Below, one piece after another: positions 39,108 to 60,942 of a stretch of DNA of 64,000 bases. The DNA comes from an uncultured Sideroxydans sp. Its GTDB lineage: Bacteria > Pseudomonadota > Gammaproteobacteria > Burkholderiales > Gallionellaceae. The stretch spans positions 1,917-65,916 of the forward strand of contig CAYROQ010000011.1 of the NCBI GenBank assembly GCA_964425955.1, in the 5' to 3' direction. The translations under genes were made by a program, and so were the position numbers. The notes beneath the pieces were generated by a model. It had not been told where the DNA came from, did no database searches, and worked only from the letters and a program-made list of their open reading frames with translations. The stretch's first letter is position 1, and each line of letters opens with the position of its first letter.

Positions 39108-39147
39108 AAAAAAATGAGCCGCTCCTGTATGCAAGCAGGAACGGCTC
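39108..39147 (-). terminator. Putative rho-independent terminator downstream of the 39299..40924 gene, inside the flhD upstream region
   Basis: The minus strand has the hairpin GAGCCGTTCCTG-N8-CAGGAGCGGCTC (one mismatch), followed by ATTTTTTT. Confidence 0.55.
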
Positions 39148-41547: not shown

Positions 41548-41563
41548 AGCAGGTTACATGCCA
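41548..41563 (-). promoter_or_regulatory. Candidate sigma54 (-24/-12) promoter upstream of the pilin gene
   Basis: The minus strand reads TGGCATGTAACCTGCT, against the consensus TGGCAC-N5-TTGCW. The GG and GC dinucleotides have the correct spacing. The site lies about 70 nt upstream of the ATG. Confidence 0.5.
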
Positions 41564-41653
41564 CCGTCAATATGTACTGTTAGGCACTGCTTCAAGCTGC
41601 AATTTGGTAACCCGACCTACGAAATGCGCAAGATGACTGACGTTTTTTGTCAG

Positions 41654-43288
41654 TCACGGGACGTATCCGGGAATCTTGCTTTCATCGACCGCATCAATTT
41701 GTTCAGCCGCCAAAAAACGGTGTGCATATTCCAAGTAGACTTTTTCGCGAATGAACACATCGAACAGGTCGGGATCAATGTGACCACTTTCTTTGAACTT
41801 GCCTAAAATATTCAGCGATTCAGTCAGCGTTTTGCCTTCTTTATACGGGCGATCTTTGGCGGTAAGCGCCTCAAAGATGTCGGCAATGCCCATCAATCTC
41901 GCCTGTACTGACATTTGTTCACGCGTCAGGCCTTTGGGGTAACCCTTGCCATCCATCCGCTCATGATGCCCGCCGGCGTATTCGGGCACACGTTTTAGGT
42001 GATTTGGCCATGGCAGTGATTCCAACATCTTGATGGTGACCAGGATGTGGTGGTTGATGATCTGGCGCTCATTAGCCGTCAGCGTGCCGGCTCTGATCGT
42101 CAGGTTTTCGAGTTCTTCCGCAGTAAGAAAATCAACCCGTTCGCCCTGCACGTTGCTCCATTGGTACTGGGCGATCCGTAGCACGTGTGCCACGTCGGAC
42201 TCAGACATCTTCTCTGTACCAATATTTGAATGACGCAGAAATTCACGGTCTTCGTCGAGTTGCCGGACAGTGCTCTCAAATTCATCCTGCGTTTTGATTC
42301 CACGTAAGTATTCGATCTCCGCGTCCCGTTTCAGCACTTCGAAGCGCGTATCAACCAAGTGGATCCGATCAAAGATGGTTTGTAATTTGGTTGATTTATC
42401 GACCACGTGTACCGGCGTCGTGATCTTGCCGCAATCGTGCAACAAACCCGCGATCTTCAATTCGTAGCGATCTTTGTCGGTCAGGTTAAAGTCTTTTAAC
42501 GAGCCGTGTTTGGAACGGTTCGCCGCTTCAGCCAGCATCATGGTCAGCGTTGGCACCCGTTCGCAATGTCCGCCGGTGTAAGGCGACTTGTCGTCGATCG
42601 CGGTGTTGATAAGACTGATGAAGGATTCAAAAAGATCTTCAAGTTGCTGGATCAGCCGACGATTGCTGATTGCAATGGCAGCCTGGGAGGCCAGTGATTC
42701 AAGCAGTTTCTGGTCGTCTTTCGAGAACCTCAACACCTTGCCTGTAGCTGCTTCCGTCGCATTGATGAGCTGCAACACACCAATGATCTCGTTATCGTGA
42801 TTGCGCATCGGCACGGCAAGGAAAGAGCGGGAATGGTAGCCGGTCTTGGCATCGAATTTTTTGGTGCCGGAAAAGTCGTATCCCGCCGCAATGTAGGCGT
42901 CCGAGATATTCACCGTCTCCCCGCTTAATGCCGCGTGGCTGACCACCATCGCGTTATTGGGCTGGCCGTCAACATAGAGTTGAATCGGGTAGAACGGAAT
43001 CGGAACGCCCGACGTTCCGCCCATGCGAATCTTGAGCGAATCGTTGCTAAGGATCTCAAAGGTCAGTATCTGTTTCTCGACATCCACCAGATACAACGTC
43101 CCGGCATCCGCATTGGTGATTTTCTTGGCTGCATCCAGAATATTTTCCAGCAGGCGATTGATATCGCGCTCGCTGGACAACGCGGCACCGATGGCATTCA
43201 GATTGCTCAGGCGGTTGAGTAATCCTTCCACCATGGCGCGCTGTTCTTTTTCTTGCGCCTTGAAGGAAATCATTCTGGTGTTATCCAT
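41654..43288 (-). CDS. GAF domain + HD-GYP domain protein (putative c-di-GMP phosphodiesterase)
   Basis: 544 aa. The GAF domain reads LLENILDAAKKITNADAGTLYLVD...SFLAVPMRNHDNEIIGVLQLIN. The HD motif is GLLHDCGK and the GYP motif is GGHHERMDGKGYPKGL. Confidence 0.88.
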   Translation of the reverse strand: MDNTRMISFKAQEKEQRAMVEGLLNRLSNLNAIGAALSSERDINRLLENILDAAKKITNADAGTLYLVDVEKQILTFEILSNDSLKIRMGGTSGVPIPFYPIQLYVDGQPNNAMVVSHAALSGETVNISDAYIAAGYDFSGTKKFDAKTGYHSRSFLAVPMRNHDNEIIGVLQLINATEAATGKVLRFSKDDQKLLESLASQAAIAISNRRLIQQLEDLFESFISLINTAIDDKSPYTGGHCERVPTLTMMLAEAANRSKHGSLKDFNLTDKDRYELKIAGLLHDCGKITTPVHVVDKSTKLQTIFDRIHLVDTRFEVLKRDAEIEYLRGIKTQDEFESTVRQLDEDREFLRHSNIGTEKMSESDVAHVLRIAQYQWSNVQGERVDFLTAEELENLTIRAGTLTANERQIINHHILVTIKMLESLPWPNHLKRVPEYAGGHHERMDGKGYPKGLTREQMSVQARLMGIADIFEALTAKDRPYKEGKTLTESLNILGKFKESGHIDPDLFDVFIREKVYLEYAHRFLAAEQIDAVDESKIPGYVP

Positions 43289-43305
43289 GTTTCATTCTCT
43301 TCAAA

Positions 43306-45702
43306 TTACTTGATACAAACTGCGCGCACTTGATGGATATCGGTAATGCCGCTCAATACTTTTTCAATCCCGTCCTGTTTCAGTGTGCGCATCCCCTCTT
43401 CCAGGGCAATCGCAAAAAGTTCGGCCACACGTGCATGCTCCTGTATGGCTTTTTTCACCGGGTCTGTCCCGATCAGCAACTCGTGCAAACCGACCCGCCC
43501 CCGGTAACCTGTTCCTGAACACTTTTCGCAGCCCACCTTTTCGTAAAGCGTGATCTGACCTTTATCGTCACTGAATAACTTGACCCACTCCGCATAAAGA
43601 TTCTTGTACGCAGTGTTCGGATCCATCTTCCACGTCGCGGTGTTCATCAACTCAAGTGCATATTCCGACAGCAACGCTTTGATCTCATCCTGCGTGGCCA
43701 CATGTGCCTTTTTGCAGTCCTTGCACAAACGCTTGGCCAGGCGTTGCGCCAGGATGCCCAGCAACGCATCGGCAAAATTGAAGGGATCCATGCCCATATC
43801 CAACAAACGGATGATAGATTCCGGTGCGCTGTTGGTGTGCAAGGTGGCGAACACCAGGTGCCCCGTAAGGGATGCTTCGATACCCGTCGCCACGGTTTCT
43901 TTGTCGCGCATTTCACCGACCATAATCACATCGGGATCTGCACGCAAAAATGCCCGCATGATGGTGGCGAAGTCCAGTCCAGCCTTCTTGTTGATTTGTA
44001 CCTGGCGCAAACCTTTTTGGGTAATTTCTACCGGGTCTTCAGCTGTCCAAATCTTGGTGTCCGGCGTGTTGATATGTTTCAAAATCGAATGCAACGTAGT
44101 GGTCTTGCCTGAACCGGTTGGACCGCAGACGAAGAACAATCCGTACGGCTTGGAAACCGTCTGTTTGACGAGTTTGAGGTTACGCTCGGAGAAGCCCATC
44201 TTGTCCAGCGGGATCGGATCGCCGGAAGCCAATATACGCATCACCACGTCTTCCACTCCGCCCTGCGAAGGTATGGTCGCAACACGAAGTTCGATGTCCA
44301 ACGGCCCGTATTTCTTGAATTTTATCTTGCCGTCCTGCGGCTTGCGCTTCTCGGAGATATCAAGGTCGCACATGATCTTGAGGCGCGTCACCAATGCATT
44401 GCGATAGTTTGATGGAACCTCGATGTAATTCAACAGCGAGCCATCCTTGCGCACACGGATCAACGTTTTTCCCTTACCGGGAGCGGGTTCGATATGAATA
44501 TCCGATGCACCCATCTTGTAGGCATCCACGATAATCTTGTTGACCAGTTTGACCAGTTCGTTGTCTGCCGCAGCACTGACATCGTCCTGGTTAAGACTGC
44601 TCATTTCTTCGTCTTCATCGCCACCCAATGAAGTGAGCAAATCATCAACAGAACCTTCCATATCCGAGAAGCTTCCCGTGATATCGCCTACTCCGCCACC
44701 GCCACCTCCATAGAACAGATCCAGAGTGGCACGGAACTCGCGCAGGGTGCAGACTTTGTAGATCAGCCTGTTTTTGGGAAAGATGTTATTGACGACGCGC
44801 GATGCTTGGATCCTCTCAGGATCCGTTGTCAGTATGACTACCCCATCGGGGCTGTCATCGATCGGCACCCAATGACTGCTCTCAACGTATTCGCGTTTCA
44901 GATTTCTCAGCAATTCGGTGGGTTTGATACGATCGCCCTTGTGAGGCTCATAGGGCACGCCGAAGAAATTCGAGAGCGCCTTGCCCAGCGAATCCGGTTT
45001 GACCTGAAATTCGTCCAACAATACATCTTCAACGTCCACGCCTTTGCGTCTTGCCGTGCGCGTTGCCAATTCGAATTCTGCCGCAGACATCACAGCGTCT
45101 GACACCAGATAATCGTATTTGGTCTTGACCGACCCAGCCTGTTGCTGGCGCTGGCGTAATGCCACGGCCAAGGTTTGTGCCAACTCACGCGCACCTTCCT
45201 CTACCATGACCGGGAAGGGCAATCCCGCCTTGTTGTTGATGACCTGCATCACCCCGACCAGATCACCGTTTTCCTCGACGATCGGGGCGACCAGCATCTG
45301 TTTGGTGCGGTATCCGGTGCGCTTGTCCACATCCTGCAGGAAATGCAACGTGGCGCTGTGCAAGGACAATTCCTGCGCGTCGTAGACATCCTTCAGATTG
45401 AGCAGCTTTTTATTGAATGCGGCAAAGCCCGCGATACTCTGTTCGGCGATGGGGAGTTTAAGATCCTTGAAAGAGTTCAGTCCGGTCTTGACCTTCGAAA
45501 CCAGTGACGCCTTGTCATCCCCCACCACATAGATGGTGAGACGGTCGGCGTTGAACAAGGCGCAGATGTCTTTGCTGACATCCAGCATGATCTCGTCGAT
45601 GTTGCTGGTCGCATGGATTTTGTTGGTGACATGATTGAGGCTGCGGGTGAACTCCAGCCTGACCCCCATCTCACTTGCACTACCCTGCACTGGACTATTC
45701 AT
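43306..45702 (-). CDS. GspE/PilB-family secretion ATPase with N-terminal GAF domain
   Basis: 798 aa. The N-terminal GAF domain reads IMLDVSKDICALFNADRLTIYVV...MLVAPIVEENGDLVGVMQVIN. A T2SSE_N-like region follows (VSDAVMSAAEFELATRTARRKGVDVEDVLLDEF). Walker A is GPTGSGKTTT, Walker B/Asp box is DPDVIMVGEMRD, the His box is GHLVFATLHTN, and a CxxC...CxxC tetracysteine motif is present. Confidence 0.88.
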   Translation of the reverse strand: MNSPVQGSASEMGVRLEFTRSLNHVTNKIHATSNIDEIMLDVSKDICALFNADRLTIYVVGDDKASLVSKVKTGLNSFKDLKLPIAEQSIAGFAAFNKKLLNLKDVYDAQELSLHSATLHFLQDVDKRTGYRTKQMLVAPIVEENGDLVGVMQVINNKAGLPFPVMVEEGARELAQTLAVALRQRQQQAGSVKTKYDYLVSDAVMSAAEFELATRTARRKGVDVEDVLLDEFQVKPDSLGKALSNFFGVPYEPHKGDRIKPTELLRNLKREYVESSHWVPIDDSPDGVVILTTDPERIQASRVVNNIFPKNRLIYKVCTLREFRATLDLFYGGGGGGVGDITGSFSDMEGSVDDLLTSLGGDEDEEMSSLNQDDVSAAADNELVKLVNKIIVDAYKMGASDIHIEPAPGKGKTLIRVRKDGSLLNYIEVPSNYRNALVTRLKIMCDLDISEKRKPQDGKIKFKKYGPLDIELRVATIPSQGGVEDVVMRILASGDPIPLDKMGFSERNLKLVKQTVSKPYGLFFVCGPTGSGKTTTLHSILKHINTPDTKIWTAEDPVEITQKGLRQVQINKKAGLDFATIMRAFLRADPDVIMVGEMRDKETVATGIEASLTGHLVFATLHTNSAPESIIRLLDMGMDPFNFADALLGILAQRLAKRLCKDCKKAHVATQDEIKALLSEYALELMNTATWKMDPNTAYKNLYAEWVKLFSDDKGQITLYEKVGCEKCSGTGYRGRVGLHELLIGTDPVKKAIQEHARVAELFAIALEEGMRTLKQDGIEKVLSGITDIHQVRAVCIK

Positions 45703-45717
45703 CTACTTTCCCTGTCT

Positions 45718-46794
45718 TTATTGTTGTTGCGTCTTGGGTACCGACCACAAACCGTTTTCCAAAACATAGGTGTCATAACCTGCCTGCGCCAGGATGAATG
45801 CAGCTGCCGCACTTCGACGTCCACTTTGGCAATAGGCAATATAAGCGTTCGATTTGTTTAATACATTGATCGCATTTCGAATGTCATTCAATGGTACGTT
45901 GATCGCGTTGGGCAATTTGTCATAGCGAAATTCCGGCGGATGGCGCACATCCAGCCAGATCGCACCCTGCGAGATTTTCTGCTTCGCTTCCTGAAAATCG
46001 ATACGTCGCAGCAACGGCTCTTTCATCAACTCCTGGAAATCCTGTTTCTTCAACCGCAACAATACGCCGTTGCTTTTCATCGAGACTGTGGCGTTTCGCT
46101 TGGATTCCGAGATAAGTGCTTCTTCGCCGAATACATCTCCGGCTTTTAGTTCCGCCAAAATAAGATTGGCTCCTCCTACCAAACGCGAGACCTGTGCGCG
46201 ACCACTCTCGATAAGGTAATAATAATCGCCTTCCTCTCCCTCGCGAATGATCACATCTTTTTCCCAAACTGCGAGCGCCTCGACCCTGCCGAGTAATTTT
46301 CCGATATTCGCGGGCGGTAGGTGCGCGAAAGGCCCATGGTTCAGATTCTCTGCGCTGAACATGCCAGAATTAAGCAACCTGCGCACGGATGCTTCCGGGC
46401 CATCCTTGTCGTGATTGGGTTTGGCATCATCCTGGTTGGCGAACTGATCCCACGTCACCATCCTGTCCAGCAATTCATCATCCACTCTTAGCAACTGCAC
46501 CAGACTCAAGGCCTTGGACGAACGGATCGCCGGCTGGCGCTTGCCTATCGGATGTCTGGCCCACTCGGAATTAGCCCGAATCACCACACGATTACCGTCG
46601 ATGTAGTCAACCTCCAATTCACCCCGCAACAGGTAGACCGACTGCCCGTCCAGCGAACGCTCCGCAAAGGGGTCCTGACCGGGCGCGATACTTTCCACGT
46701 GACAATAATCAAGTATTTCACGCAGGCGTACCGGACTAAAAGAGGAAATAGGTTCCAATGCAGCCAGCACACGGATGTCCAATACATTGTTCAT
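45718..46794 (-). CDS. Tandem cyclic-nucleotide-binding domains + C-terminal rhodanese domain protein
   Basis: 358 aa. The second cNMP domain is canonical (GDYYYLIESG...GDVFGEEALIS..RNATV), while the first is degenerate. The rhodanese domain reads IWLDVRHPPEF...YIAYCQSGRRSAAAAFIL and carries the active-site Cys. Confidence 0.8.
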   Translation of the reverse strand: MNNVLDIRVLAALEPISSFSPVRLREILDYCHVESIAPGQDPFAERSLDGQSVYLLRGELEVDYIDGNRVVIRANSEWARHPIGKRQPAIRSSKALSLVQLLRVDDELLDRMVTWDQFANQDDAKPNHDKDGPEASVRRLLNSGMFSAENLNHGPFAHLPPANIGKLLGRVEALAVWEKDVIIREGEEGDYYYLIESGRAQVSRLVGGANLILAELKAGDVFGEEALISESKRNATVSMKSNGVLLRLKKQDFQELMKEPLLRRIDFQEAKQKISQGAIWLDVRHPPEFRYDKLPNAINVPLNDIRNAINVLNKSNAYIAYCQSGRRSAAAAFILAQAGYDTYVLENGLWSVPKTQQQ

Positions 46795-46807
46795 ATTCGC
46801 GTTTCGA

Positions 46808-47572
46808 TCAAAGTTCGAATTTCTGTCCGTTTTTCAAAATCCGGGGGGCCAGACCCCGCACTTTTTCGCTGATCTCGCGCATCGTCAATTCGACCTCACC
46901 TGGCTTCAGATGTGTGATGTAGATTTCCGGGCGCAATTCAAGTTTATCCAACTCGATTGCAAGCAAACTTGGGCAAAGGTGTTTGGATAAAACTGCCAAT
47001 TCTTTTTCAGCATCAGAAAAAGCGGTTTCAACGATGAGATAGCGCAGATTGCCAATCTGATTCACCGCCCGCCAAAATGCATCACACGTAGTGGTATCGC
47101 CGCTGAATACCAAACTGCATTTTCCGCTGTCAATGTGAAATCCCACGGCAGGTACCACGTGATTGACGGGTAGCGGAGTCAGCTTTCTGCCACTCAAATC
47201 CACTGTCTTTCCCAGTTTGATTTCCTCGTAACGCATCACCGGTTGATTGAGGTTGGGAATCGCCGCGAAATCGGGCCATATCTCCCAATTAAAAATATGC
47301 GTTTGCAGTATGGCCAGCGTCTCGGCAGTGGCATGAATGTTCAGAGGCTTGTTGCGCAAGAATCCAACACTATCTACCAGCAACGGCAGGCAGGCGATGT
47401 GATCGAGATGGGAGTGTGTGATGAAAATATGATCGATCCGGCTCATTTCCGCCAGACTTAATTCGCCTAATCCGGTACCCGCATCGATCAATACATCGTG
47501 ATCCAATAAGAAAGACGTCGTGCGAGAATTCCCACCGATGCCTCCGCTACAGCCTAATACTCTGAGATTCAT
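46808..47572 (-). CDS. Metallo-beta-lactamase-fold, class-II-like 3',5'-cyclic-nucleotide phosphodiesterase
   Basis: 254 aa. MNLRVLGCSGGIGG...LIDAGTG...IFITHSHLDHIACLPLLVDS closely approaches the class II PDE signature HxHLDH. No signal peptide is present. Confidence 0.7.
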   Translation of the reverse strand: MNLRVLGCSGGIGGNSRTTSFLLDHDVLIDAGTGLGELSLAEMSRIDHIFITHSHLDHIACLPLLVDSVGFLRNKPLNIHATAETLAILQTHIFNWEIWPDFAAIPNLNQPVMRYEEIKLGKTVDLSGRKLTPLPVNHVVPAVGFHIDSGKCSLVFSGDTTTCDAFWRAVNQIGNLRYLIVETAFSDAEKELAVLSKHLCPSLLAIELDKLELRPEIYITHLKPGEVELTMREISEKVRGLAPRILKNGQKFEL

Positions 47573-47582
47573 CGAGATTTAC

Positions 47583-49814
47583 TCATTTTGTTTTGAAGAC
47601 GAAAACTCCGTCCCAATTTTCCCCCGGTGGGTTCCTACGGCAAAAAGCCACTCTCTCGGCGTAGACCTTATACAGCTTGCTTTGCGGATTCATGTTGCAC
47701 AAACTCAGAAGTTGCAATTCCGCTTTATCCCAATCCTGCTTGCGATACAGCTTCAATACTTGGTGAAATAGCTTGAGTTCCTCCAACACCTCCATAGCGA
47801 CTTCCGAATTCAGCCCGATCGGTTCGAAGATCGTCACCGGTTTCTCTTTGCCCTTGACACGGACTAAATCAACTTCACGGTAGGCAAACTCGGGAGCTGC
47901 AAGTTTGGTCAATTCTCCAACCAGCATCTGTGCTCCGTATTCCTTGGTGATACCTTCCAATCTGGAAGCGAGGTTCACCGCATCACCCATCACCGTATAG
48001 GCCACTCGCACTTCCGAACCCATGTTTCCCACGCTGACACGCCCGGTGTTGATACCCACACCAATTTGTATTTCAGGCCATCCGCGCGATTTGAAATGCG
48101 GCTGAAGTTCAGCCAATGCTCGCTGCATCTCCAGACCCGCCATGATCGCGTTATACGCATGCCTCTCATCCGCCAACGGTGCCCCCCAGAATGCCATGAT
48201 GCAATCGCCCATGTACTTGTCGATCGTGCCGCGTTGCTTATAGATGATGCGTGAGAGCGGGGTCAGAAACTCATTCATCAACAGTGACAATTCTTTGGGC
48301 TCAAGCCCTTCGGATATCGTAGTAAACCCGCGCACATCTGAAAACAGGATGGACATCTCGCGGCTTTCGCCCTCCATCGAGACAGCTCCGGGATTCTTCG
48401 CCATTTCATCAACCAATTCACCAGGGACGTATTGACCAAACAAGCCGGTGATCTGTTTCTTTGCGCGTGATTCCACGAAATAGCCAAAGGTCATGTTCAA
48501 GGCGAACAAGGTCAGAATCATGAGGATGCCGCCAGCCAATGGCAATGCGATATCTCCGCTGGACCACAGCCATTTATTCAGCACAATATCGGCCATGATC
48601 ATGCCGATTGTGACCAGCATTCCCCGCACCGGACTCAATAGCGGCAAAATCAGACTCAAGGTCAATCCTATGAGCAGCAACAAAACAACGTTCGCACCCA
48701 CAACATATGGCGGATTCTGTTTCACACTCTGGCTGAGGATGCCGCTGACCATATTCGCATGCACCTCCACACCGGGATACACCTCGCCCACAGGGGTAGT
48801 TCGCATATCCATCAATCCGGGAGCAGAAGTACCGACCAAAACGATCTTGTTTTGCAAGTCTGCGACCTGAACGCGCTCACTTAACACATCTGAAACCGAA
48901 ATATAGCGGAACGTCCCGCGCCCTCCGCGAAAGGGGACCAATGCACTGACTTCCCCATCAACGGGTATATTCAAGTTACCTTGCGGCGACTCCAGCGTGA
49001 GCCATTCCAGCCCGCCGTAGTCTTTGTTCTGCCCCGTCACGAAACCGGGTACCAACTTGGGCATGTCCAACACGGAACGCACCACAGCCAGCGAAAGTGA
49101 TTCGTAATAATTGCCGTTGTGTTCAACGATCATTGGAATACGTCGAACCACTCCGTCAAAATCAACAACGGGATTGAAATGTCCCGCGCTGGCAGCTTTT
49201 ATTTGCAGTTCGGGCAGGTTGGCGCCGAAACTGTCCCACTTCATGAAGTTGATCGAACGGCCTTTGAACGAACCGGCAGTAAATGCCGGTTCCGGAAGTG
49301 CGCCAGAGGTACTGGCCGTAACGCCCGATTCGCTATTGCTGAAGTAATAACCCAAAACCACTTTGCGCTGCTCGAGCTTGCTGGCAAACATCGCGTCATA
49401 TTCAAGATGCGGCTGCACTTGGCTCAACACCGTCTGGAACTGCTCGACATCTTTAAATTGTTTTTGACCTAACTCCTGCAGAACTTTCAAACCCGAACTG
49501 GTGTCTTTTTCAGCAAAGACCACGTCGAAACCGACTACGGCCACATTGTAGTGATCGAACAGTTCGTCCATGAGTTTGGAAAGTTTGTCCCGTCCCCATG
49601 GCCAACGACCTTCCTGTTTCAGACTTTTTTCATCGATGTCCAGTATGACAATACGATCATCGGAGTCGTGCGGCAGGGTAAGCCTCATCCTGTAGTCATA
49701 CAATTTCGCATCAGCAAATTGTACAAAACCAAGGTTGTAGAACTTAGCTGCATCGCCGATAAATAGCAGAACTGCCAAGAACCCCAAGCCAATGAGAAGT
49801 GCGTGCTTTTTCAT
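47583..49814 (-). CDS. CHASE2 sensor - class III adenylate/guanylate cyclase
   Basis: 743 aa. The CHASE2 hallmark is RIVILDIDEKSLKQEGRWPWGRDKLSKLMDEL. A TM block lies at about aa 365-440. The cyclase domain reads MSILFSDVRGFTTISE...TIDKYMGDCIMAFWGAP...GINTGRVSVGNMGS..AYTVMGDAVNLASRLEG. Confidence 0.88.
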   Translation of the reverse strand: MKKHALLIGLGFLAVLLFIGDAAKFYNLGFVQFADAKLYDYRMRLTLPHDSDDRIVILDIDEKSLKQEGRWPWGRDKLSKLMDELFDHYNVAVVGFDVVFAEKDTSSGLKVLQELGQKQFKDVEQFQTVLSQVQPHLEYDAMFASKLEQRKVVLGYYFSNSESGVTASTSGALPEPAFTAGSFKGRSINFMKWDSFGANLPELQIKAASAGHFNPVVDFDGVVRRIPMIVEHNGNYYESLSLAVVRSVLDMPKLVPGFVTGQNKDYGGLEWLTLESPQGNLNIPVDGEVSALVPFRGGRGTFRYISVSDVLSERVQVADLQNKIVLVGTSAPGLMDMRTTPVGEVYPGVEVHANMVSGILSQSVKQNPPYVVGANVVLLLLIGLTLSLILPLLSPVRGMLVTIGMIMADIVLNKWLWSSGDIALPLAGGILMILTLFALNMTFGYFVESRAKKQITGLFGQYVPGELVDEMAKNPGAVSMEGESREMSILFSDVRGFTTISEGLEPKELSLLMNEFLTPLSRIIYKQRGTIDKYMGDCIMAFWGAPLADERHAYNAIMAGLEMQRALAELQPHFKSRGWPEIQIGVGINTGRVSVGNMGSEVRVAYTVMGDAVNLASRLEGITKEYGAQMLVGELTKLAAPEFAYREVDLVRVKGKEKPVTIFEPIGLNSEVAMEVLEELKLFHQVLKLYRKQDWDKAELQLLSLCNMNPQSKLYKVYAERVAFCRRNPPGENWDGVFVFKTK

Positions 49815-49876
49815 GTACCTCTCTTCTCCTCAACTCAAGGCTTGATCAGACTAATGGTCAACCTGCTTGCTCTGAA

Positions 49877-50647
49877 TCAGGCTTTGAAATAGAACTCCAT
49901 CTTGATACCGGCCAGTTCAATAATGTCATGATCATTCAACTGATGCGGCTGCTCGCCCGCTGAAGACCCATTCACCAAAGGAAAACTGCCTCCTTCAACG
50001 TGTGTGATGAAATATCCATGAGGGCGGCGCGCAAGTACGGCCACCTGTACGCCGGGCTTCCCTAGTGTGGTGAGGTTCTTGCTGAGCTCCAGCTCTTTAC
50101 CCAGATTAGGGCCATTCAGAATCTGTATCACGGCTGCCGGTGTTTGGTTGACTACCGGAGCAGGAGTCGCGGGTGAAACATCGACCTTTGGGGAAGTCGC
50201 ATTGAATTTTGTGGTCGATTCATGTTTGGGCACACCACTCACCACATCGACTTGGGTTCGGTTAAAACTCTCATCCGCTTTGGGAGCGGGTGACCCCTTG
50301 ACTGGTGCACGCAACACCATGGTCTTTTCGAAATCGTCAGCCGATGTCTGGGTTGGCTGGTCGTTCAAATATTTAAGTTTGTATTTTCCGATTTCAATGA
50401 TGTCGCTATTCTGAAGAAAATGCTTTTGTGTGGACAGTCCGTTGACAATGGAGCCATTGGTGCTGCCCAAATCTTCAAAGAATGAGTCGTTCAAAATAGT
50501 GATGATGGCCGCATGCTCGCTGCTCACAGCCAAGTTGTCTATGACAATATCATTGTGCGGTTTGCGCCCTATAGTGGTCCGCTCTTTGGTAAGCGGATAC
50601 TCTTTGATCACCGCCCCGTCCATACTCAGTATCAGTTTTGCCGACAT
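49877..50647 (-). CDS. FHA-domain protein (N-terminal canonical FHA, C-terminal FHA-like domain)
   Basis: 256 aa. The N-terminal FHA reads TTIGRKPHNDIVIDNLAVSSEHAAI...DLGSTNGSIVNG...IIEIGKYKL. A Pro/Thr-rich linker follows. The C-terminal part (LTTLGKPGVQVAVL...LVNG...IIELAGIKMEF) is less canonical. Confidence 0.82.
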   Translation of the reverse strand: MSAKLILSMDGAVIKEYPLTKERTTIGRKPHNDIVIDNLAVSSEHAAIITILNDSFFEDLGSTNGSIVNGLSTQKHFLQNSDIIEIGKYKLKYLNDQPTQTSADDFEKTMVLRAPVKGSPAPKADESFNRTQVDVVSGVPKHESTTKFNATSPKVDVSPATPAPVVNQTPAAVIQILNGPNLGKELELSKNLTTLGKPGVQVAVLARRPHGYFITHVEGGSFPLVNGSSAGEQPHQLNDHDIIELAGIKMEFYFKA

Positions 50648-50678
50648 TTCAATTTTCCTGTATTAACTTGTTACAGCT

Positions 50679-51506
50679 TCAATTCTTAAACCAAGATTTC
50701 AACTTCGTCCACCATCCTTTGGGAGTGGCATAACTCGCCTTGACCTTGACCAGAACTACGGACACATTATCGCGACCACCGTTGTCATTTGCCTGTTCCA
50801 GCAGCTGACTGGCCGCCAGCGTCAGGTTGCCCCGCAGCATCTGTACCGTGGAGCAGATATCTTCATCCTCCACCATATCGTTCAATCCATCCGAGCAGAA
50901 CAGGTAGATGTCATCGACCTCAACCTTATGTACATGCAATTCCGGAACCACATCGGCCTCGACACCCACCGCGCGGGTCACCAGATTCTTGTTTTTTGAT
51001 AGTTTTGCCAGTTCTTTGCTGATGACACCGCTATCAATCTGATCCTGCAACAGAGAGTGGTCTCGCGTGATGGTTTCCAATACCTCCCCACGCAGGCGAT
51101 ATAGGCGTGAATCTCCCACGTGCGCAACAACCAGACGGTCATCGTAGAATAAACCGGCAACGATGGTGGTTCCCATTCCCGCATATTGTGGTTGACTTTG
51201 CGCAGCGTTGAAAATGGAAAGATTGGCCTTCTTAACATTGTCGCGCAATAACACCACTCCGAACTCGTCACCTGATGCCACGTCCGTCTTCGCCGGATCA
51301 ACTTCTTCGAGGCGGTGCCTGATCTCGCTGGTCAGCACAGAAACCGCAATGCCGCTGGCAACTTCACCCGCGTTATATCCACCCATTCCGTCAGCGAGTA
51401 CAACGAGGCCGTGCTGCGCATCAAAGGCCAGGCTATCCTCATTATGTGAACGCACCATACCCGGATGGGTTTGGCTGACTATCTCCAGCGCCTCATTCAC
51501 GTTCAC
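50679..51506 (-). CDS. PP2C-family Ser/Thr protein phosphatase
   Basis: 275 aa. The start is a GTG with a GAGGA Shine-Dalgarno. The motifs are HPGMVRSHNEDS, VLADGMGGYNAGEVAS, HVGDSRLY, FCSDGL and GGRDNVSVVLV. Confidence 0.9.
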   Translation of the reverse strand: MNVNEALEIVSQTHPGMVRSHNEDSLAFDAQHGLVVLADGMGGYNAGEVASGIAVSVLTSEIRHRLEEVDPAKTDVASGDEFGVVLLRDNVKKANLSIFNAAQSQPQYAGMGTTIVAGLFYDDRLVVAHVGDSRLYRLRGEVLETITRDHSLLQDQIDSGVISKELAKLSKNKNLVTRAVGVEADVVPELHVHKVEVDDIYLFCSDGLNDMVEDEDICSTVQMLRGNLTLAASQLLEQANDNGGRDNVSVVLVKVKASYATPKGWWTKLKSWFKN

Positions 51507-51528
51507 GTCCTGTCCTCGCCCTTGTTAT

Positions 51529-54051
51529 TCATTTCAGTGTCGCAGCACACTGCCGAAGCGCCTCTGCCATCGCCGCGCCATTTTCATACCGGTCTTCAAC
51601 CTTCTTCGCAATTGCCTTTTCGATTATGGCGACCACACATGGCGGGACATCCGGGTTGATCATCAGAATGTCCGTTGGCGGTTCATTGGCGATTCTGAAC
51701 ATCAATTGCGCCATCGAATCACCCACGAAAGGAAGCTTACCACACGCCATTTGGTAGAGACTCACTCCCAGCGAGAACAGATCGGATTGTCCGCCGATCT
51801 TGGCTCCCGACAGCTGTTCCGGTGACATGTAGGAGGGGGTTCCCAACACCATGCCGGTCTTGGTTTTACTGGAATCGGTGATGCGCGCGATGCCGAAGTC
51901 GGTCACCTTAACGGTATCGCTTTCCAGGTCGTACATGATATTGGCCGGTTTGATATCGCGGTGCACCACATTCAACGAATGTGCATAACCCAGAGCTTCT
52001 GCCACGCGCGCCACGATACTCAGCACCTGTGGCAAAGGCAGCAGACTGTCCGGCTTGGTGTACGCCACCAGATCCTTGCCTTTGAGGAATTCCATGGCGA
52101 TATAGGCCAAGTCATGCTCCTCACCGGCATCGTACATGGTGACGATGTGCGGATGGTTCAATCGGCCGGCTGTCTCGGCTTCACGGAAGAAGCGGGCTTT
52201 CACCTCTTCCAATTCATCCGCCTCGAACTCCTGCGCCAATGCCATGGTCTTGATCGCCACGACGCGGCTGATCTTGGGATCTTTGCCGAGATACACCACC
52301 CCCATGGCACCCTTGCCCAACTCCTTCTCGATCTGGTAGCGCCCCAACATCGGCTTGGCCATCCCGACCTGATCCAGCTTCATCGTGCTGTCATTGCCCC
52401 TGCCGGATGACCCGCCGAGAATAATCGTTTCTGCCATGGCTTTGGATTGCGCGGTCCGAGCTTCCAGATCGCGGAATTTCGGATTGTGGTCGGCCATATA
52501 TTTGAACACCGACTCCGCCTTGTTGAACTGGCGTTTGCGCTCAAAATCCAAACCGAGGTTGTATAAAACGTCCATCAAACTATCGTCCAGCGGCACCTTG
52601 CGGAACTTGTCGAAAGCCATATCAAGCTGGCCTTGCCCCTGGAAGGCCAAACCCAACATCCTGTTGCTTTCGGCCGAATCGGCATCGGATTTTTCCTTGC
52701 CTTTTTCGGTCATCAGGAAACGTTTGGTCGTCAGCAACAAATGACCGACCAGCAGAAGTGCGGCAGGCAACATCAATTGCAGCCACATCGCTTGCGTTGT
52801 CATGAGCACAAAATGGATCGCCAGCAACAACACGAATAGTCCGCCGGTGATCGCGGCCCCCAGGCCGGCGCTCAAGCGTGGCAACAACAAGATCAGATAC
52901 AAAGCAACCGTCAAGAATATACCCAGTTCCGCCCACGCGCCCCAACTGGGAGTGATGAAGAAATCTTGCTTCAAGATGCTGGAGACAGAATGTGCCAGCG
53001 TGAGTACCGGCGGTGTCGCCGCAGAGATGGGAGTGACCTGCGTCGCACCGACACCTGCTGCGGTTGAACCGATCAAAACGATCTTGTCCCTGTATTTTTC
53101 TGGCGGGATCTTGCCGGTCAACACATCGTAAAAGGAGTCCACTTGAAAAGCGGGTTTGTCATCCCGGTCAGCATAAAAATACGTAAACATTCGCAGCGCC
53201 GGATCCGTCGCGATACTGAGATTACCCAGCTTGACACCCTCACCCAAGGTCACGTTGATATCCTTTGGCTCAAGGTTCAGGCTCTTCGCTGCGATCATCA
53301 ACGACAGGGAAGGATAGTACTGGTCGTAATAACCCACCACCAGAGGCTCGGTGCGTATCCCTCCGTCAACATCGGGAGTGGCGTTCAGATGACCGATTGC
53401 GACAGCCTGTTGTCCCAGCACAGGGATCGGAAACAGCGCATTGAATGACGGGACTGGCAACGGCGCATCGGCAGAACCCTGCACATTCACCAGATTATTT
53501 TTCACAACAAAGTCAGGCAAGGGCGAATCCGGATTGCCTTGGGGCTCACCCAACTCAAAATACAAGCCGAGCAATACATTGTTGACCTTGGCCATGCTCT
53601 CGGCCAATTTTTGATCATTATCCAGATGCAGTAACGCATCCTGCATCAAGCCTTGCAGCTCTTTCCATTCGGCCGGATTGGTATTCTTAAGGGAGGTCTT
53701 TTCAAGAACGCTGGCGATATTGAGGATGTAGTCCAGGCCTGCATCTACTTGCGGCTCGAAGAATAGGGCGGTCTGTCCGACGACTTTAGGCTGACCTTCG
53801 GCCAGTATCTCCAGCATCTTCCCCTGAATCTCACGCGGCCAAGGCCAACGTCCAATATTCGCGATGCTGGTATCATCAATAGCAATCACGGCAATCTTGT
53901 CGCTGGGAGTGCGTGTTGAGGCCACGACTCCCCAGTCATAGGCTTTGCGCTCCAAACTCTGGACAACTCCCGTATTTCCGCTAAACAAAAATACCAGGGC
54001 GACAACTAAAGCAGTGAACCAGTCTGATTTATGAAAGGATGTTTTTCTCAT
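51529..54051 (-). CDS. CHASE2 sensor - TM - helical repeat - Hanks-type Ser/Thr protein kinase (kinase at the C-terminus)
   Basis: 840 aa. The CHASE2 hallmark is KIAVIAIDDTSIANIGRWPWPREIQGKMLEIL. TM helices lie at about aa 375-450. The kinase motifs are LGKGAMGVVYLG, VAIKTM, HRDIKPANIM, VTDFGIA and GTPSYMSPEQ. Confidence 0.9.
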   Translation of the reverse strand: MRKTSFHKSDWFTALVVALVFLFSGNTGVVQSLERKAYDWGVVASTRTPSDKIAVIAIDDTSIANIGRWPWPREIQGKMLEILAEGQPKVVGQTALFFEPQVDAGLDYILNIASVLEKTSLKNTNPAEWKELQGLMQDALLHLDNDQKLAESMAKVNNVLLGLYFELGEPQGNPDSPLPDFVVKNNLVNVQGSADAPLPVPSFNALFPIPVLGQQAVAIGHLNATPDVDGGIRTEPLVVGYYDQYYPSLSLMIAAKSLNLEPKDINVTLGEGVKLGNLSIATDPALRMFTYFYADRDDKPAFQVDSFYDVLTGKIPPEKYRDKIVLIGSTAAGVGATQVTPISAATPPVLTLAHSVSSILKQDFFITPSWGAWAELGIFLTVALYLILLLPRLSAGLGAAITGGLFVLLLAIHFVLMTTQAMWLQLMLPAALLLVGHLLLTTKRFLMTEKGKEKSDADSAESNRMLGLAFQGQGQLDMAFDKFRKVPLDDSLMDVLYNLGLDFERKRQFNKAESVFKYMADHNPKFRDLEARTAQSKAMAETIILGGSSGRGNDSTMKLDQVGMAKPMLGRYQIEKELGKGAMGVVYLGKDPKISRVVAIKTMALAQEFEADELEEVKARFFREAETAGRLNHPHIVTMYDAGEEHDLAYIAMEFLKGKDLVAYTKPDSLLPLPQVLSIVARVAEALGYAHSLNVVHRDIKPANIMYDLESDTVKVTDFGIARITDSSKTKTGMVLGTPSYMSPEQLSGAKIGGQSDLFSLGVSLYQMACGKLPFVGDSMAQLMFRIANEPPTDILMINPDVPPCVVAIIEKAIAKKVEDRYENGAAMAEALRQCAATLK

Positions 54052-54165: not shown

Positions 54166-54594
54166 TTATTTACGGGTGATCGTGACGGGCACTTTCGCCA
54201 GATTAGCCACTTTGCTGGTCACCGACCCCAGCAACAAATTGGCCAGACTTTCATGACCTTGAGCCCCCACGACGATCTGATCCACGCCCTGTTCTTCGGC
54301 ATATTGCAAAATGGCTTCGGCCGGTTGACCGATGCTGATGTGGTATTGATAGGGTAGCTCGGCAGCTTCCAATGCGGAGCGGGCCACTTTCAAAGCCTCC
54401 ATGCCCTGCTCACGGTAGTAGTCGTTGATCGTATCCTGGTTGATGAACAACTTGACGTTACCCGCTGCCACATTCCATTGCACATTCAACAAAAACAACT
54501 GCGGACTGTTCGCCAATTCTTTCGATAACTTGATGGCGTAGTTCACCGCACTGATTGCGTTGTCAGATCCGTCGACCGGAATCAAAATTTTCAT
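54166..54594 (-). CDS. Universal stress protein (UspA family)
   Basis: I trimmed the start to the ATG at 54594 (MKILIPVDGSDNA...) with an AGGAG Shine-Dalgarno. The ATP-binding type motif is VVGAQGHESLANLLLGSVTSKV. Confidence 0.88.
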   Translation of the reverse strand: MKILIPVDGSDNAISAVNYAIKLSKELANSPQLFLLNVQWNVAAGNVKLFINQDTINDYYREQGMEALKVARSALEAAELPYQYHISIGQPAEAILQYAEEQGVDQIVVGAQGHESLANLLLGSVTSKVANLAKVPVTITRK

Positions 54595-54608
54595 TTTTCT
54601 AGCTCCTG

Positions 54609-55346
54609 TCATTTTTTATTTGAAGTATCAACCCGCTCATCCACCAGATCCACAACTTGAACCTCGGCTCTTCTTTGCAATGCCAGCCATTTGCCCACCG
54701 CCAGCACCAACACCGCACACGCTATCGGAATCAACCAATGCAACGCATGCTGTGTTTCCAGAAGTGGAAGCAACACGGGCTCCCCAACCAGCATCTCACC
54801 GGCCACGTAGCCCAGCAACGCTCCGCCGGCCAATATGATCAAGGGGAAGCGGTCGATCATTTTCAACACCAGCTGACTGCTCCACGCGATCAGCGGAATA
54901 CTGATAAGCAGACCGAATACCAGCAAGAACACGTTGCCTTTTGCTGCCGCTGCGACACCCAGCACATTGTCCAGACTCATCACAAAATCGGCGATGATGA
55001 TGGTCTTCACCGCTGCCCACAATTGCGTTTCTGCCTTGATATTGCCTTCGCCGTGCCCTTCTTCTTCCGGCAGAATCAGCTTGACGCCGATCCACAACAA
55101 CAAAGCCGCTCCGACCAGCTTTAGGTAAGGCAAAGACAATAGACTCACCGCAAAAAACGTCAACACAACACGCAAACCGATCGCGCCGCCGACCCCGTAC
55201 ATAATGCCTTTACGTCTCTGAGCATCGGGTAAATTTCGACAGGCCAGCGCGATCACCACCGCGTTATCACCCGACAACAAAAGATCGATCATTATGATCT
55301 TGAATACATCCACCCAAAACTGCGGTGCTGAGAACATCTCTAACAT
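54609..55346 (-). CDS. TerC-family integral membrane protein
   Basis: 245 aa with about 7 TM helices. The repeated acidic intramembrane motifs LLSGDNAVVIAL and VMSLDNVLGVAA are typical of TerC/YjbE-type proteins. Confidence 0.85.
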   Translation of the reverse strand: MLEMFSAPQFWVDVFKIIMIDLLLSGDNAVVIALACRNLPDAQRRKGIMYGVGGAIGLRVVLTFFAVSLLSLPYLKLVGAALLLWIGVKLILPEEEGHGEGNIKAETQLWAAVKTIIIADFVMSLDNVLGVAAAAKGNVFLLVFGLLISIPLIAWSSQLVLKMIDRFPLIILAGGALLGYVAGEMLVGEPVLLPLLETQHALHWLIPIACAVLVLAVGKWLALQRRAEVQVVDLVDERVDTSNKK

Positions 55347-59781: not shown

Positions 59782-59871
59782 TCTTTAATCCCCCCACGAT
59801 TCGATGTAACTTCAACAACCAAATAACCAGGCTGCCCTGCCTATAGTTTCGCGACCGTTAGAACAGAATAA

Positions 59872-60942
59872 TTAATTCCACTTAGTGTATGCGGTTCCCT
59901 GATTTCCCAAAGGCCTGTGACACCCGCTTGCGGAACAATCCCCGCCAGGGTTGGCAACCTTATCAGGATTATGCAGGCTATTTAACTTCTGCATTTTTCC
60001 AAGGTAGTTATTTGCCAAGTGACAAGTCGTACAAGTAGAAGATACATAGGTGTGCAAAGTTGCTCCCGTCACCACCGCATTACCAATACCGGAAGTATGA
60101 CAGGCCGTACAACTCGCCGAGGCGTTGTAGGGAATGTGGTTGGCCGGTTTAGCGCCAAGCGCGCCCGCGAATGATATTGTGCTCAGGTGACATTGATTGC
60201 ATTCCATGGGCCAACCTATAAAACTGTTGTGGCTGATTGGCCAACCTTTCGCGACCGATCCATTATGGCAACTCGAACAAGCTCCCCCCGTGTTGTGTTT
60301 AAAACGAGCGGGTAACCAACTGTTAAACCCGTGGCAGGAATCACACTCAAGAGTCCCTTTAAGCGCAGGAGCCGCGTGACTTGCCGGTTTGCGGTTTGAA
60401 ATGGAAACATCCGGGCTGCTGATGTGGCAAGTTGAGCACGTACCTGCCGCTATTTCCGTGTGATTCCAGCTTGCAGGCAACCATGCGGAGGATCGGTGAC
60501 AACTGTCACAAGTTTTGGATGCTTTGTTTCCGGCGGAATGACTGGACGGCTTGCTTCTGGAAAGCCTGCCGTTATGGCAGATTTCACACTTTCCCGGTTG
60601 CGCATTCGCATGGTTAAACCGTGCGCCAATGAAAGTTGCCGTGTTGAAGTGGCAGGTTTCACAGGGTGCATCGGTCACGATATGGGCACTGGATTTTGGT
60701 GTTGCCACAATGCGTTTACCCAATGCGTGGCAACCGTCACACGCTTTCGGTGTGCCTTTGAAAACACCTCCGATGTGGCAGGTTTCGCAAGCGGCTGTGG
60801 CATGACCGCCAGTGAGTGGAAACCCCGTCGACATATGGTTAAAGTCGCGTCCACTCAGTTGAGTTTCGGCCATGACCTGAAGAGAAAATACAGCTAATGC
60901 GATGAAAAACAAGTTGCCCGCAATTCGAACTGGTCGTTTCAT
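59872..60942 (-). CDS. Multihaem cytochrome c (11 CXXCH + 1 CX4CH), secreted
   Basis: 356 aa with a signal peptide (FFIALAVFSLQVMA). The motifs in order are CETCH, CDGCH, CETCH, CEICH, CDSCH, CSTCH, CDSCH, CSSCH, CNQCH, CTACH, CTTCH, followed by CSASGCH. A GGAGG Shine-Dalgarno lies upstream. Confidence 0.9.
   Translation of the reverse strand: MKRPVRIAGNLFFIALAVFSLQVMAETQLSGRDFNHMSTGFPLTGGHATAACETCHIGGVFKGTPKACDGCHALGKRIVATPKSSAHIVTDAPCETCHFNTATFIGARFNHANAQPGKCEICHNGRLSRSKPSSHSAGNKASKTCDSCHRSSAWLPASWNHTEIAAGTCSTCHISSPDVSISNRKPASHAAPALKGTLECDSCHGFNSWLPARFKHNTGGACSSCHNGSVAKGWPISHNSFIGWPMECNQCHLSTISFAGALGAKPANHIPYNASASCTACHTSGIGNAVVTGATLHTYVSSTCTTCHLANNYLGKMQKLNSLHNPDKVANPGGDCSASGCHRPLGNQGTAYTKWN

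Follow-up and report, generated by a model that had tools for sequence, protein, structure and literature searches.

A modular gene cluster of Gallionellaceae that may link cyclic AMP to a type IV pilus ATPase and to cyclic di-GMP turnover

A 64,000-nucleotide stretch of contig CAYROQ010000011.1 from an uncultured Sideroxydans sp. (called the window when its full length is meant) carries a unit of eight minus-strand genes, g1 to g8, at positions 41654-54051, and this unit is very probably a conserved, co-functioning signaling cluster linked to type IV pili. The products range from a CHASE2 Ser/Thr kinase (g1) to a GAF-HD-GYP phosphodiesterase (PDE; g8), and next to the latter stands g7, an ATPase of the PilB/GspE type with an N-terminal GAF domain (Table 1). 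According to the full model, a modular operon would switch type IV pilus assembly and the turnover of cyclic di-GMP (c-di-GMP) in response to an envelope cue, by way of a motor gated by cyclic AMP (cAMP), and we regard the arguments for and against this model as evenly balanced. That g7 is a cAMP-gated pilus extension motor within a lineage-wide switch of surface behavior in the iron-oxidizing Gallionellaceae and their relatives is a tentative proposal.

The coordinates of the eight open reading frames and the seven gaps between them (22, 31, 62, 10, 13, 15 and 17 nt) agreed exactly with a first-pass annotation that had been made from the DNA letters alone. No signal was found that would split the unit: a terminator scan detected terminator-like sites in none of the seven gaps between the genes, weak stems of 5-6 bp being located only within coding sequence, and a promoter scan gave promoter-like matches at no more than chance level. 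When the region from 38 to 56 kb was scanned with Rfam, zero families were obtained at E ≤ 1, c-di-GMP-I and c-di-GMP-II riboswitches included. Pfam matches were above the gathering thresholds for each domain family named in g1-g8, and inspection of the translations revealed complete catalytic motifs in each enzyme of the unit. The earlier domain calls were thereby upheld at the level of families, with the exception of a second FHA domain in g3 and a first cyclic nucleotide-binding domain in g6, both of which fail at the level of hidden Markov models. As had also been noted earlier, the domain content of the unit includes no platform protein, secretin, prepilin peptidase or transcription factor.

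Table 1. Positions of the eight genes and of neighboring features in the window (TM, transmembrane; CNB, cyclic nucleotide-binding; aa, amino acids).
Feature	Position	Strand	Evidence or remarks
g1, CHASE2-TM-Ser/Thr kinase	51529-54051	-	Pfam, motifs, hydropathy
g2, PP2C Ser/Thr phosphatase	50679-51506	-	Pfam PP2C/PP2C_2; GTG start; DGMGG39-43
g3, FHA protein	49877-50647	-	Pfam FHA aa 24-87
g4, CHASE2-TM-class III (IIIb-type) adenylyl cyclase (signature)	47583-49814	-	Pfam CHASE2 and Guanylate_cyc; alignment
g5, metallo-beta-lactamase-fold hydrolase, candidate cyclic-nucleotide PDE	46808-47572	-	Pfam Lactamase_B_2 and partial PDEase_II; HSHLDH53-58
g6, CNB-rhodanese protein	45718-46794	-	Pfam cNMP_binding aa 179-258 and Rhodanese; homolog alignment
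g7, GAF-MshEN-PilB/GspE-type ATPase	43306-45702	-	Pfam, PDB matches, motifs
g8, GAF-HD-GYP phosphodiesterase	41654-43288	-	Pfam GAF and HD/HD_5 (HD_5 142.5 bits); alignment to PmGH (4MCW)
Inverted repeat TGACTGAC-N7-GTCAGTCA, possible transcript end	41634..41656	-	g8-pilin spacer; starts inside g8 stop codon; no T-run; read from sequence
Sigma54-type -24/-12 element TGGCATgtaacCTGCT, putative promoter	41548..41563	-	About 70 nt upstream of pilin start
Type IVa pilin, 163 aa	40987-41478	-	Pfam Pilin and N_methyl; 175 nt downstream of g8
Multi-pass membrane protein with C-terminal TPR, 541 aa	39299-40924	-	TPR families only; several predicted TM helices (hydropathy)
Strong intrinsic-terminator-like hairpin, 12-bp stem and T-run	39116-39147	-	Closes pilin/TPR unit ahead of flhD; terminator scan
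Usp and TerC genes	54166-55346	-	
716-aa protein and 356-aa multihaem cytochrome	57631-60942	-	Upstream of sucCD; weak TPR matches only in Pfam (716 aa); Cytochrome_C7/c3 repeats (cytochrome)
Flagellar/chemotaxis block	16005-39061	-	Downstream of the cluster

The cluster was followed through related genomes. A scan of one genome per species of the Genome Taxonomy Database (GTDB) gave 84 loci, all in Gallionellaceae, and a metagenome scan seeded with the N-terminus of g7 (an alignment of three sequences) gave at least 528 relatives; the best 80 loci per scan were kept, which favors close relatives. A homolog search with a diverse N-terminal alignment returned mostly gene fragments, which served as entry points to contigs. 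When the window proteins were located by tblastn, the eight genes were colinear wherever the contig was long enough. Variants were counted in all retrieved loci, pooled, made non-redundant and with enough flank (n = 82). Conservation of gene order had been named as a check in the first-pass annotation, and it held: 67 of the 82 loci keep all eight genes in order, nine lack only g6, three contain g2, g3, g5, g7 and g8 (g1, g4 and g6 being absent), two are reduced to g5, g7 and g8, and a single one, from Candidatus Ferrigenium straubiae, lacks only g5, which was verified. The ATPase g7 and the HD-GYP protein g8 were thus found in 82/82 loci and the candidate PDE g5 in 81/82. In the complete genome of Ca. 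F. straubiae KS, the PDE gene is gone and the cyclase gene is separated from the CNB-rhodanese gene by 126 nt (9874-10001 of locus L069).

Besides Gallionellaceae, the cluster occurs in a metagenome-assembled genome (MAG) of Azovibrio (Rhodocyclaceae) and on unassigned soil metagenome contigs, and the flanks sometimes differ. The MAG of Azovibrio restrictus has a seven-gene form that is followed by two pilins, and the soil lineage, with an ATPase identity of 63-71%, keeps the eight genes, mostly without the flank of sucCD, TerC and Usp. In locus L087, CHASE2 cyclase, PDE, GAF-HD-GYP protein and GAF-ATPase are present in changed order and orientation, together with a GAF-MshEN protein that stands alone and a rhodanese encoded separately. 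Intergenic gaps were equally tight in Ferrigenium, in a marine MAG and in Azovibrio.

It is extremely improbable that the eight genes are unrelated signaling genes that were juxtaposed by chance or are held together by inherited synteny. Part of the conservation does represent vertical inheritance, because the upstream housekeeping flank of sucCD, TerC and Usp is also syntenic within Gallionellaceae. However, lineages with other flanks show the same gene order although protein identity is only 50-70%, L087 holds the parts in a new arrangement but still together, losses are modular (the CHASE2 genes jointly, g6 alone), and gaps of 5-60 nt are conserved. As order, spacing and modular variants are conserved across lineages, chance juxtaposition is excluded, and the cluster is among the best-conserved signaling loci of Gallionellaceae. 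Among the forms of this modular cluster the eight-gene one is the most complete, and the core takes its input from elsewhere. The first-pass annotation had proposed a self-contained cascade, but the unit is not self-contained, since natural variants exist that lack both CHASE2 proteins or that are reduced to PDE, ATPase and HD-GYP protein. In three loci both CHASE2 genes are lost together, which suggests that the two CHASE2 proteins serve one cue.

Among the eight gene products, g7 is the most conserved (63-98% identity, median 83%), still below the product of the housekeeping flank gene sucD (median 91%). It consists of a GAF domain (residues 35-182), an MshEN-like domain (247-335), an acidic Gly/Ser-rich linker and an ATPase domain (379-792); the MshEN domain had been overlooked in the earlier description of this protein as GAF-GspE/PilB. 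The match to T2SSE amounted to 377 bits, and Walker A (GPTGSGKT527-534), Walker B/Asp box (DPDVIMVGE589-597) and His box (TGHLV613-617) were located. Having all the defining motifs and passing the Pfam threshold, g7 belongs to the PilB/GspE (T2SSE) secretion ATPase superfamily, and the nearest solved relatives of its core are the extension ATPases PilB and PilF. Nevertheless, its scores were below the NCBIfam equivalog cut-offs for PilB (TIGR02538, 468.1 versus 675.65) as well as for GspE (TIGR02533, 432.2 versus 630.25). A tetracysteine is formed by CKDC660-663 and CEKC725-728, and an insertion in the zinc-binding module places about 60 residues between these two CxxC pairs. This insertion is common to closer relatives (P0131, P0133, P0152, P0157 and P0165) and is missing in more distant GAF-ATPases.

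The GAF domain of g7 matched both cAMP-binding GAF domains of Anabaena CyaB2 (1YKD) with an E value of 6e-26, and the next matches were the GAF domains of PmGH, PDE2A, PDE6 and PDE10A. The motifs ADRxTI, IAG, TGYRT and GVxQxxN are common to the g7 domain and to GAF domains that bind cyclic nucleoside monophosphates (cNMPs). Similarly, the GAF domain of g8 matched those of PDE5 and of CyaB2 (1YKD, E value of 1e-13). The GAF domains of a histidine kinase, of an enzyme I and of DevS were far weaker matches than the cNMP-binding ones. Judged by their sequences, the GAF domains of g7 and g8 therefore most resemble cNMP-binding GAF domains, and a cyclic mononucleotide would be their presumptive ligand.

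The MshEN fold of g7 is divergent (39.7 bits in Pfam). The published c-di-GMP-binding motif of MshEN is a tandem of the 24-residue RLGxxL(V/I)xxG(I/F)(L/V)xxxxLxxxLxxQ, and this motif was found neither in the window g7 nor in any of 140 orthologs; also, 5HTL was not among the PDB matches of g7. As the RLG...Q motif is missing from the MshEN domain of g7 and of all 140 orthologs, a direct link from c-di-GMP to the ATPase, as implied by the first-pass annotation in wiring c-di-GMP to it, is unlikely. A route by which the HD-GYP protein g8 would pass c-di-GMP information to the MshEN domain of g7 was considered and is ruled out by the missing binding motif.

The conserved locus includes the pilin gene downstream of g8, which is not a mere neighbor. 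Its product shows a leader MKQVQKG followed by FTLIELM, with Phe at +1 and Glu at +5, C-terminal Cys144 and Cys162, a Ser/Thr-rich C-terminal half, and a weak match to ComP_DUS that is below threshold. Thus, the sequence features of a type IVa pilin are present, together with an upstream GG-N10-GC element as a predicted promoter. A pilin gene was found downstream of g8 in 54 of 65 loci of one set and in 39 of 57 of another, its start being some 0.1-0.9 kb away, and TGGCAC-N5-yTGCT precedes it in about 50 of 65 and in 38 of 57, Azovibrio and the soil lineage included. The sigma54-like element that the first-pass annotation had placed ahead of the pilin is therefore present and is kept in about 88 related loci, whereas its view of the pilin as something that merely follows the unit had to be revised.

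Could g7 power another filament or secretion process, such as a type II-secretion-like system or a competence pilus, or be mainly a nucleotide-sensing regulator and not the motor of the adjacent pilin? We consider this quite improbable. Its scores below both equivalog cut-offs, the absence of an adjacent platform gene, the unusual insertion of about 60 residues between the CxxC motifs, the degenerate Walker A of some distant family members and the sub-threshold ComP_DUS match of the pilin would be in agreement with such a role. However, the pilin is the conserved downstream neighbor across lineages, the catalytic motifs of g7 are intact, the protein is under the strongest constraint within the unit, and among solved structures those of pilus extension ATPases are the closest to it.

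The wider family to which g7 belongs was delimited with its N-terminal 380 residues, which retrieved 238 protein clusters at 50% identity (E ≤ 1e-30), among them full-length proteins with one to three GAF domains, MshEN and T2SSE at 29-48% identity. Some full-length members (P0131, P0218, P0234 and P0258) have a degenerate Walker A and probably represent pseudo-ATPases. Free-standing GAF-MshEN proteins that lack the ATPase domain were seen in L087 (10001-11185, near the CHASE2 cyclase) and in L172 (10001-11344). A link to cAMP genes throughout the GAF-ATPase family was considered and had to be rejected, as distant members were encountered in unrelated contexts. In one case the contig, from Nitrospinota, stops at the gene itself; one locus has a GAF-PAS histidine kinase, another has tandem paralogs, and a further example is a GAF-MshEN protein that stands alone. 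Given these other contexts, the operon is specific to one betaproteobacterial clade of the GAF-MshEN-ATPase family.

For g8, metal-binding and GYP motifs are complete (HD284-285 and HHERMDGKGYP441-451), and the protein aligns end to end with PmGH of Persephonella marina (E value of 7e-32), except for an insertion of about 95 residues between the HD and the GYP motifs. An insertion in a GAF-associated HD-GYP domain has been described for LIC_11189, and the insertion of g8 may be related to it. By its sequence, g8 qualifies as an HD-GYP c-di-GMP phosphodiesterase of the PmGH/Tlr0485 type. Tlr0485 from Thermosynechococcus vulcanus, a GAF-HD-GYP protein as well, has been reported as a c-di-GMP PDE that is activated by cAMP through its GAF domain. 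The second-best solved match of g8 was V-cGAP3 (5Z7C, E value of 6.5e-20), a Vibrio HD-GYP enzyme specific for cyclic GMP-AMP (cGAMP), and the substrate range of HD-GYP domains is not readable from their motifs. That 3'3'-cGAMP is the substrate of g8, or that g8 is a receptor without catalytic activity, c-di-GMP then being no output of the unit, nevertheless appears very unlikely, given that the best match is PmGH, a c-di-GMP PDE of the same architecture, that Tlr0485 offers a precedent, and that no part of the metal and GYP motifs is missing. Also, Sideroxydans ES-1 and Gallionella ES-2 each have more than 40 GGDEF/EAL proteins.

A source and a sink of cAMP are apparently encoded by g4 and g5. 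In g4, the metal-binding residues D493 and D537, the specificity residues K533 and T607, and the transition-state residues N614 and R618 were assigned. The closest solved relatives were Cya2 from Synechocystis (2W01), the engineered adenylyl form of Cya2 and CyaB from P. aeruginosa (3R5G, E value of 2.8e-36), and IlaC (6FHT) was also aligned. Cya2 owes its GTP specificity to Glu and Gly at two positions that in g4 are occupied by Lys533 and Thr607; the cyclase thus carries the class IIIb adenylyl signature and not the guanylyl one. The assignment of g5 as a candidate PDE starts from a PDEase_II match of 49.9 bits, which covers positions 81-148 of the 340 in the profile. Its solved relatives are all distant, the match to yeast PDE1 (4OJV) having an E value of 6.6e-6, and among the precomputed matches of g5 orthologs was Anti-Pycsar_Apyc1.

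If the cluster is pilus-linked as we propose, the GAF domains of g7 and g8 might still sense a ligand other than cAMP (cyclic GMP, another nucleotide or a non-nucleotide compound), with cyclase and PDE acting via g6 or on targets outside the unit. We judge this to be unlikely. GAF domains in general bind varied ligands, no ligand is known for that of PmGH, both GAF proteins are retained in clusters that lack the cyclase and g6, and on reading the sequence the NKFDE-type motif of g7 appears to be only partly retained. In contrast, the best solved relatives of both GAF domains are exclusively cyclic-nucleotide-binding, other GAF domains trailing far behind, and the cyclase signature is adenylyl and not guanylyl. 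A ligand other than a cyclic nucleotide is moreover hard to reconcile with the distribution of the candidate PDE g5, which is encoded beside both GAF proteins in 81/82 loci, those without the cyclase included.

A further candidate receptor is g6, homologs of which are 74-100% identical, the named ones being from Sideroxydans, Ferrigenium, Sideroxyarcus and other Gallionellaceae. Its CNB domain has a canonical cassette (FGEEAL222-227 and RNAT233-236), and the rhodanese domain (52.6 bits in Pfam) has its catalytic Cys322 in CQSGRR, invariant in 12/12 aligned homologs. The first-pass annotation had described tandem cNMP-binding domains. Only residues 179-258 pass as such; the N-terminal domain had no Pfam match and its hhalign comparison with the CNB domain of the same protein gave a non-significant 0.4%. 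An AlphaFold2 (AF2) model of g6, of low confidence with a pLDDT of 60 (about 80 for residues 30-110), displays a CNB-like strand order in the N-domain, and in a Foldseek search with this weak model about 270 columns aligned to the tandem-CNB regulatory subunits of PKA and PKG, which is indicative but no proof. On these grounds the N-domain would be a degenerate CNB-like domain at the level of fold only. It contains the invariant motif SEWARHPIGKRQP76-88, and residues 76-93 read as an invariant SEWARHPIGKRQP-x-IRS(A/S), resembling an extended phosphate-binding cassette that keeps Glu and Arg-Ser; the N-domain may bind a ligand other than cAMP.

The genes g1 to g3 encode a module of Hanks-type kinase, PP2C phosphatase and FHA protein, for which all defining motifs were found on inspection and by Pfam and NCBIfam matches. 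In g1, an N-terminal TM helix and a CHASE2 domain (residues 17-385) are followed by three TM helices (about 372-440) and the Hanks-type kinase domain (572-823) with VAIK601, HRD697-699, DFG718-720 and SPE743-745. The phosphatase g2 passes the equivalog cut-off of Stp1_PP2C_phos in NCBIfam (235.4 bits versus 230). The FHA domain of g3 has the canonical residues GR27-28, SSEH42-45 and NG64-65 and is succeeded by a Ser/Thr/Pro-rich linker. However, g3 is not the double-FHA protein of the first-pass annotation, since its C-terminal domain (residues of about 170-256) lacks the GR and SxxH needed for phospho-threonine binding: compared with the N-terminal FHA domain (hhalign probability 46%, E value of 2e-4), GR is changed to GK and SxxH is deleted. 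This domain had no Pfam FHA match, and its match to Yop-YscD_cpl (18 bits, spanning 22 residues) was below threshold; it may have an FHA-like fold, degenerate and non-canonical. Because the AF2 single-sequence model of g3, with a pLDDT of 48, is unusable, it does not settle the fold of this second domain.

Combining these results, we propose the following mechanism. The CHASE2 cyclase g4 would make cAMP, as its Lys533 and Thr607 suggest, and the metallo-beta-lactamase-fold hydrolase g5 would degrade it. Three cAMP receptors are predicted: the GAF domains of g7 and g8, the ligands of which we infer from family knowledge, and the canonical (second) CNB domain of g6. Binding of cAMP to the GAF domain of g7 would gate a PilB-like hexameric motor which, together with a pilus platform encoded elsewhere, would polymerize the adjacent pilin. 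In g8, by analogy to Tlr0485, cAMP would activate degradation of c-di-GMP and thereby bias the cell away from the sessile state. As an optional accessory, g6 might link cAMP to a rhodanese activity (persulfide or sulfur transfer). The CHASE2 kinase g1, the phosphatase g2 and the FHA protein g3 would constitute an accessory, reversible phospho-threonine input analogous to PpkA/PppA/Fha1. We infer the kinase targets, i.e. who phosphorylates whom in the cascade: candidate substrates, and probable targets of this branch, are the Ser/Thr-rich linker of g3 and the linker of g7. A Ser/Thr in the g7 linker (LLTSLG) was also considered; it is lost in one minimal-cluster locus (L129), and this single case (n = 1) constitutes no evidence.

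The adenylyl signature of the cyclase, the close relationship of both GAF domains to cNMP-binding ones and the precedent of Tlr0485 all support the participation of cAMP. Several points weigh against the model. The ligand specificity of GAF domains is not reliably readable from sequence. Since variants without the cyclase exist, cAMP need not originate in the operon, and Ca. F. straubiae manages without g5. The assignment of g5 as a PDE leans on a partial PDEase_II match, its score against NF041851 being far under the cut-off (43.9 versus 400 bits). Lying below both equivalog cut-offs, g7 is a divergent paralog and not a canonical PilB or GspE. No PilC/PilM-type partner is encoded inside the cluster, and distant GAF-MshEN-ATPases are placed on contigs where they are not beside PDE, HD-GYP or cyclase genes. 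With regard to the platform, Sideroxydans ES-1 and Gallionella ES-2 were reported to carry PilMNOPQ, minor pilins, an MSH cluster and PilT/U in separate clusters elsewhere on the chromosome, and the g1-g8 cluster goes unmentioned in that genome paper.

The domain families of the unit are individually ordinary, and parts of its logic have precedents. Like Tlr0485 and PmGH, g8 combines GAF and HD-GYP domains with complete HD and HHExxDGxGYP motifs; unlike them, it has the HD-GYP insertion of about 95 residues and shares an operon with a presumptive cAMP source, a cAMP sink and a pilus ATPase. As in the control of MshE and PilB by c-di-GMP, an N-terminal module of a second-messenger type is present on a PilB/GspE-family ATPase and the MshEN fold is kept in g7. 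In contrast, g7 and its 140 orthologs lack the MshEN motif, and because the added sensor is a cNMP-type GAF domain, the presumed ligand of g7 would be cAMP and not c-di-GMP. In the Pil-Chp/CyaB/CpdA/Vfr circuit of P. aeruginosa, as proposed for the unit, cAMP from a membrane-bound class IIIb cyclase is tied to type IV pili and a dedicated PDE provides the reset. In that circuit, cAMP acts transcriptionally via Vfr, whereas the unit encodes no transcription factor and its receptor domains are fused to a motor ATPase and to an HD-GYP enzyme. Furthermore, the sensor of g4 is CHASE2 and not MASE2, and g5 has a metallo-beta-lactamase fold and is not of the CpdA type. The H1 type VI secretion proteins PpkA/PppA/Fha1 resemble g1-g3 in combining a membrane-bound Hanks kinase that has an extracytoplasmic sensor with a PP2C phosphatase and an FHA scaffold beside a secretion-type component, and TagH/VI_FHA and Yop-YscD_cpl were among the matches of g3. 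Here, however, the sensor is CHASE2, the target would be a PilB-like ATPase and the branch is dispensable in natural variants, so that the analogy is functional only; type VI secretion genes were not found in the window region examined, and g1-g3 are not members of a type VI pathway. Finally, the GAF domains of Anabaena CyaB2 and of mammalian PDE2/5/6/10 share the TGY(R/H)(T/S) and IAG motifs with those of g7 and g8, whereas the output domains of g7 and g8 are a T2SSE ATPase and HD-GYP.

In open-access papers and bioRxiv we found no description of a cNMP-type GAF domain fused to a PilB-family ATPase or of the g1-g8 operon, which is in line with the earlier statement that the combination was not recognized as a described system; as the search was limited to these sources, this status is not proven. 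To our knowledge, second-messenger control of type IV pilus motors has so far involved c-di-GMP (MshEN, FimX/PilZ), with cAMP acting only transcriptionally. If our model were true, this would be the first case in which a cyclic mononucleotide acts directly on a type IV pilus ATPase and not via transcription. A cNMP-type GAF domain on the motor would provide a post-translational cAMP route and a hard-wired node of cross-talk from cAMP to c-di-GMP, with the putative motor encoded together with its own cyclase, PDE and an HD-GYP protein of the cAMP-responsive type. Gallionellaceae must hold their position in gradients of Fe(II) and O2, and genetic work on them is difficult. The cluster provides a defined setting in which the cues of CHASE2 domains might be identified, and its proteins are rich in soluble domains, which gives access in vitro.

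The 541-residue TPR membrane protein encoded after the pilin follows it also in about 46 related loci and is possibly a pilin-modifying enzyme; its architecture may resemble that of TfpW-like GT-C enzymes. In locus L085 its position is taken by a gene of the PglL/Wzy_C O-oligosaccharyltransferase type. This replacement, together with the Ser/Thr-rich C-terminal half of the pilin, suggests interchangeable pilin-glycosylation cassettes.

Upstream of g1 and on the same strand are located Usp, TerC and sucDC, then a 716-residue protein without clear domains and then a multihaem cytochrome; the latter two adjoin and might matter for the extracellular electron transfer of an iron oxidizer. The Usp and TerC genes remain next to the cluster also where it is cut down to PDE, ATPase and HD-GYP protein (L085 and L129), and they are absent beside it in Azovibrio and in the soil lineage. 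Read-through from Usp into g1 is possible, since the spacer of 114 nt between them has no convincing promoter consensus. On the other side, the operon adjoins the flagellar master regulator in about 30 related loci, Azovibrio not being one of them; in the window, the flagellar/chemotaxis block comprises flhDC, motAB, at least six methyl-accepting chemotaxis proteins (one with a PAS and one with a zinc-binding CZB domain), two CheV and two CheA.

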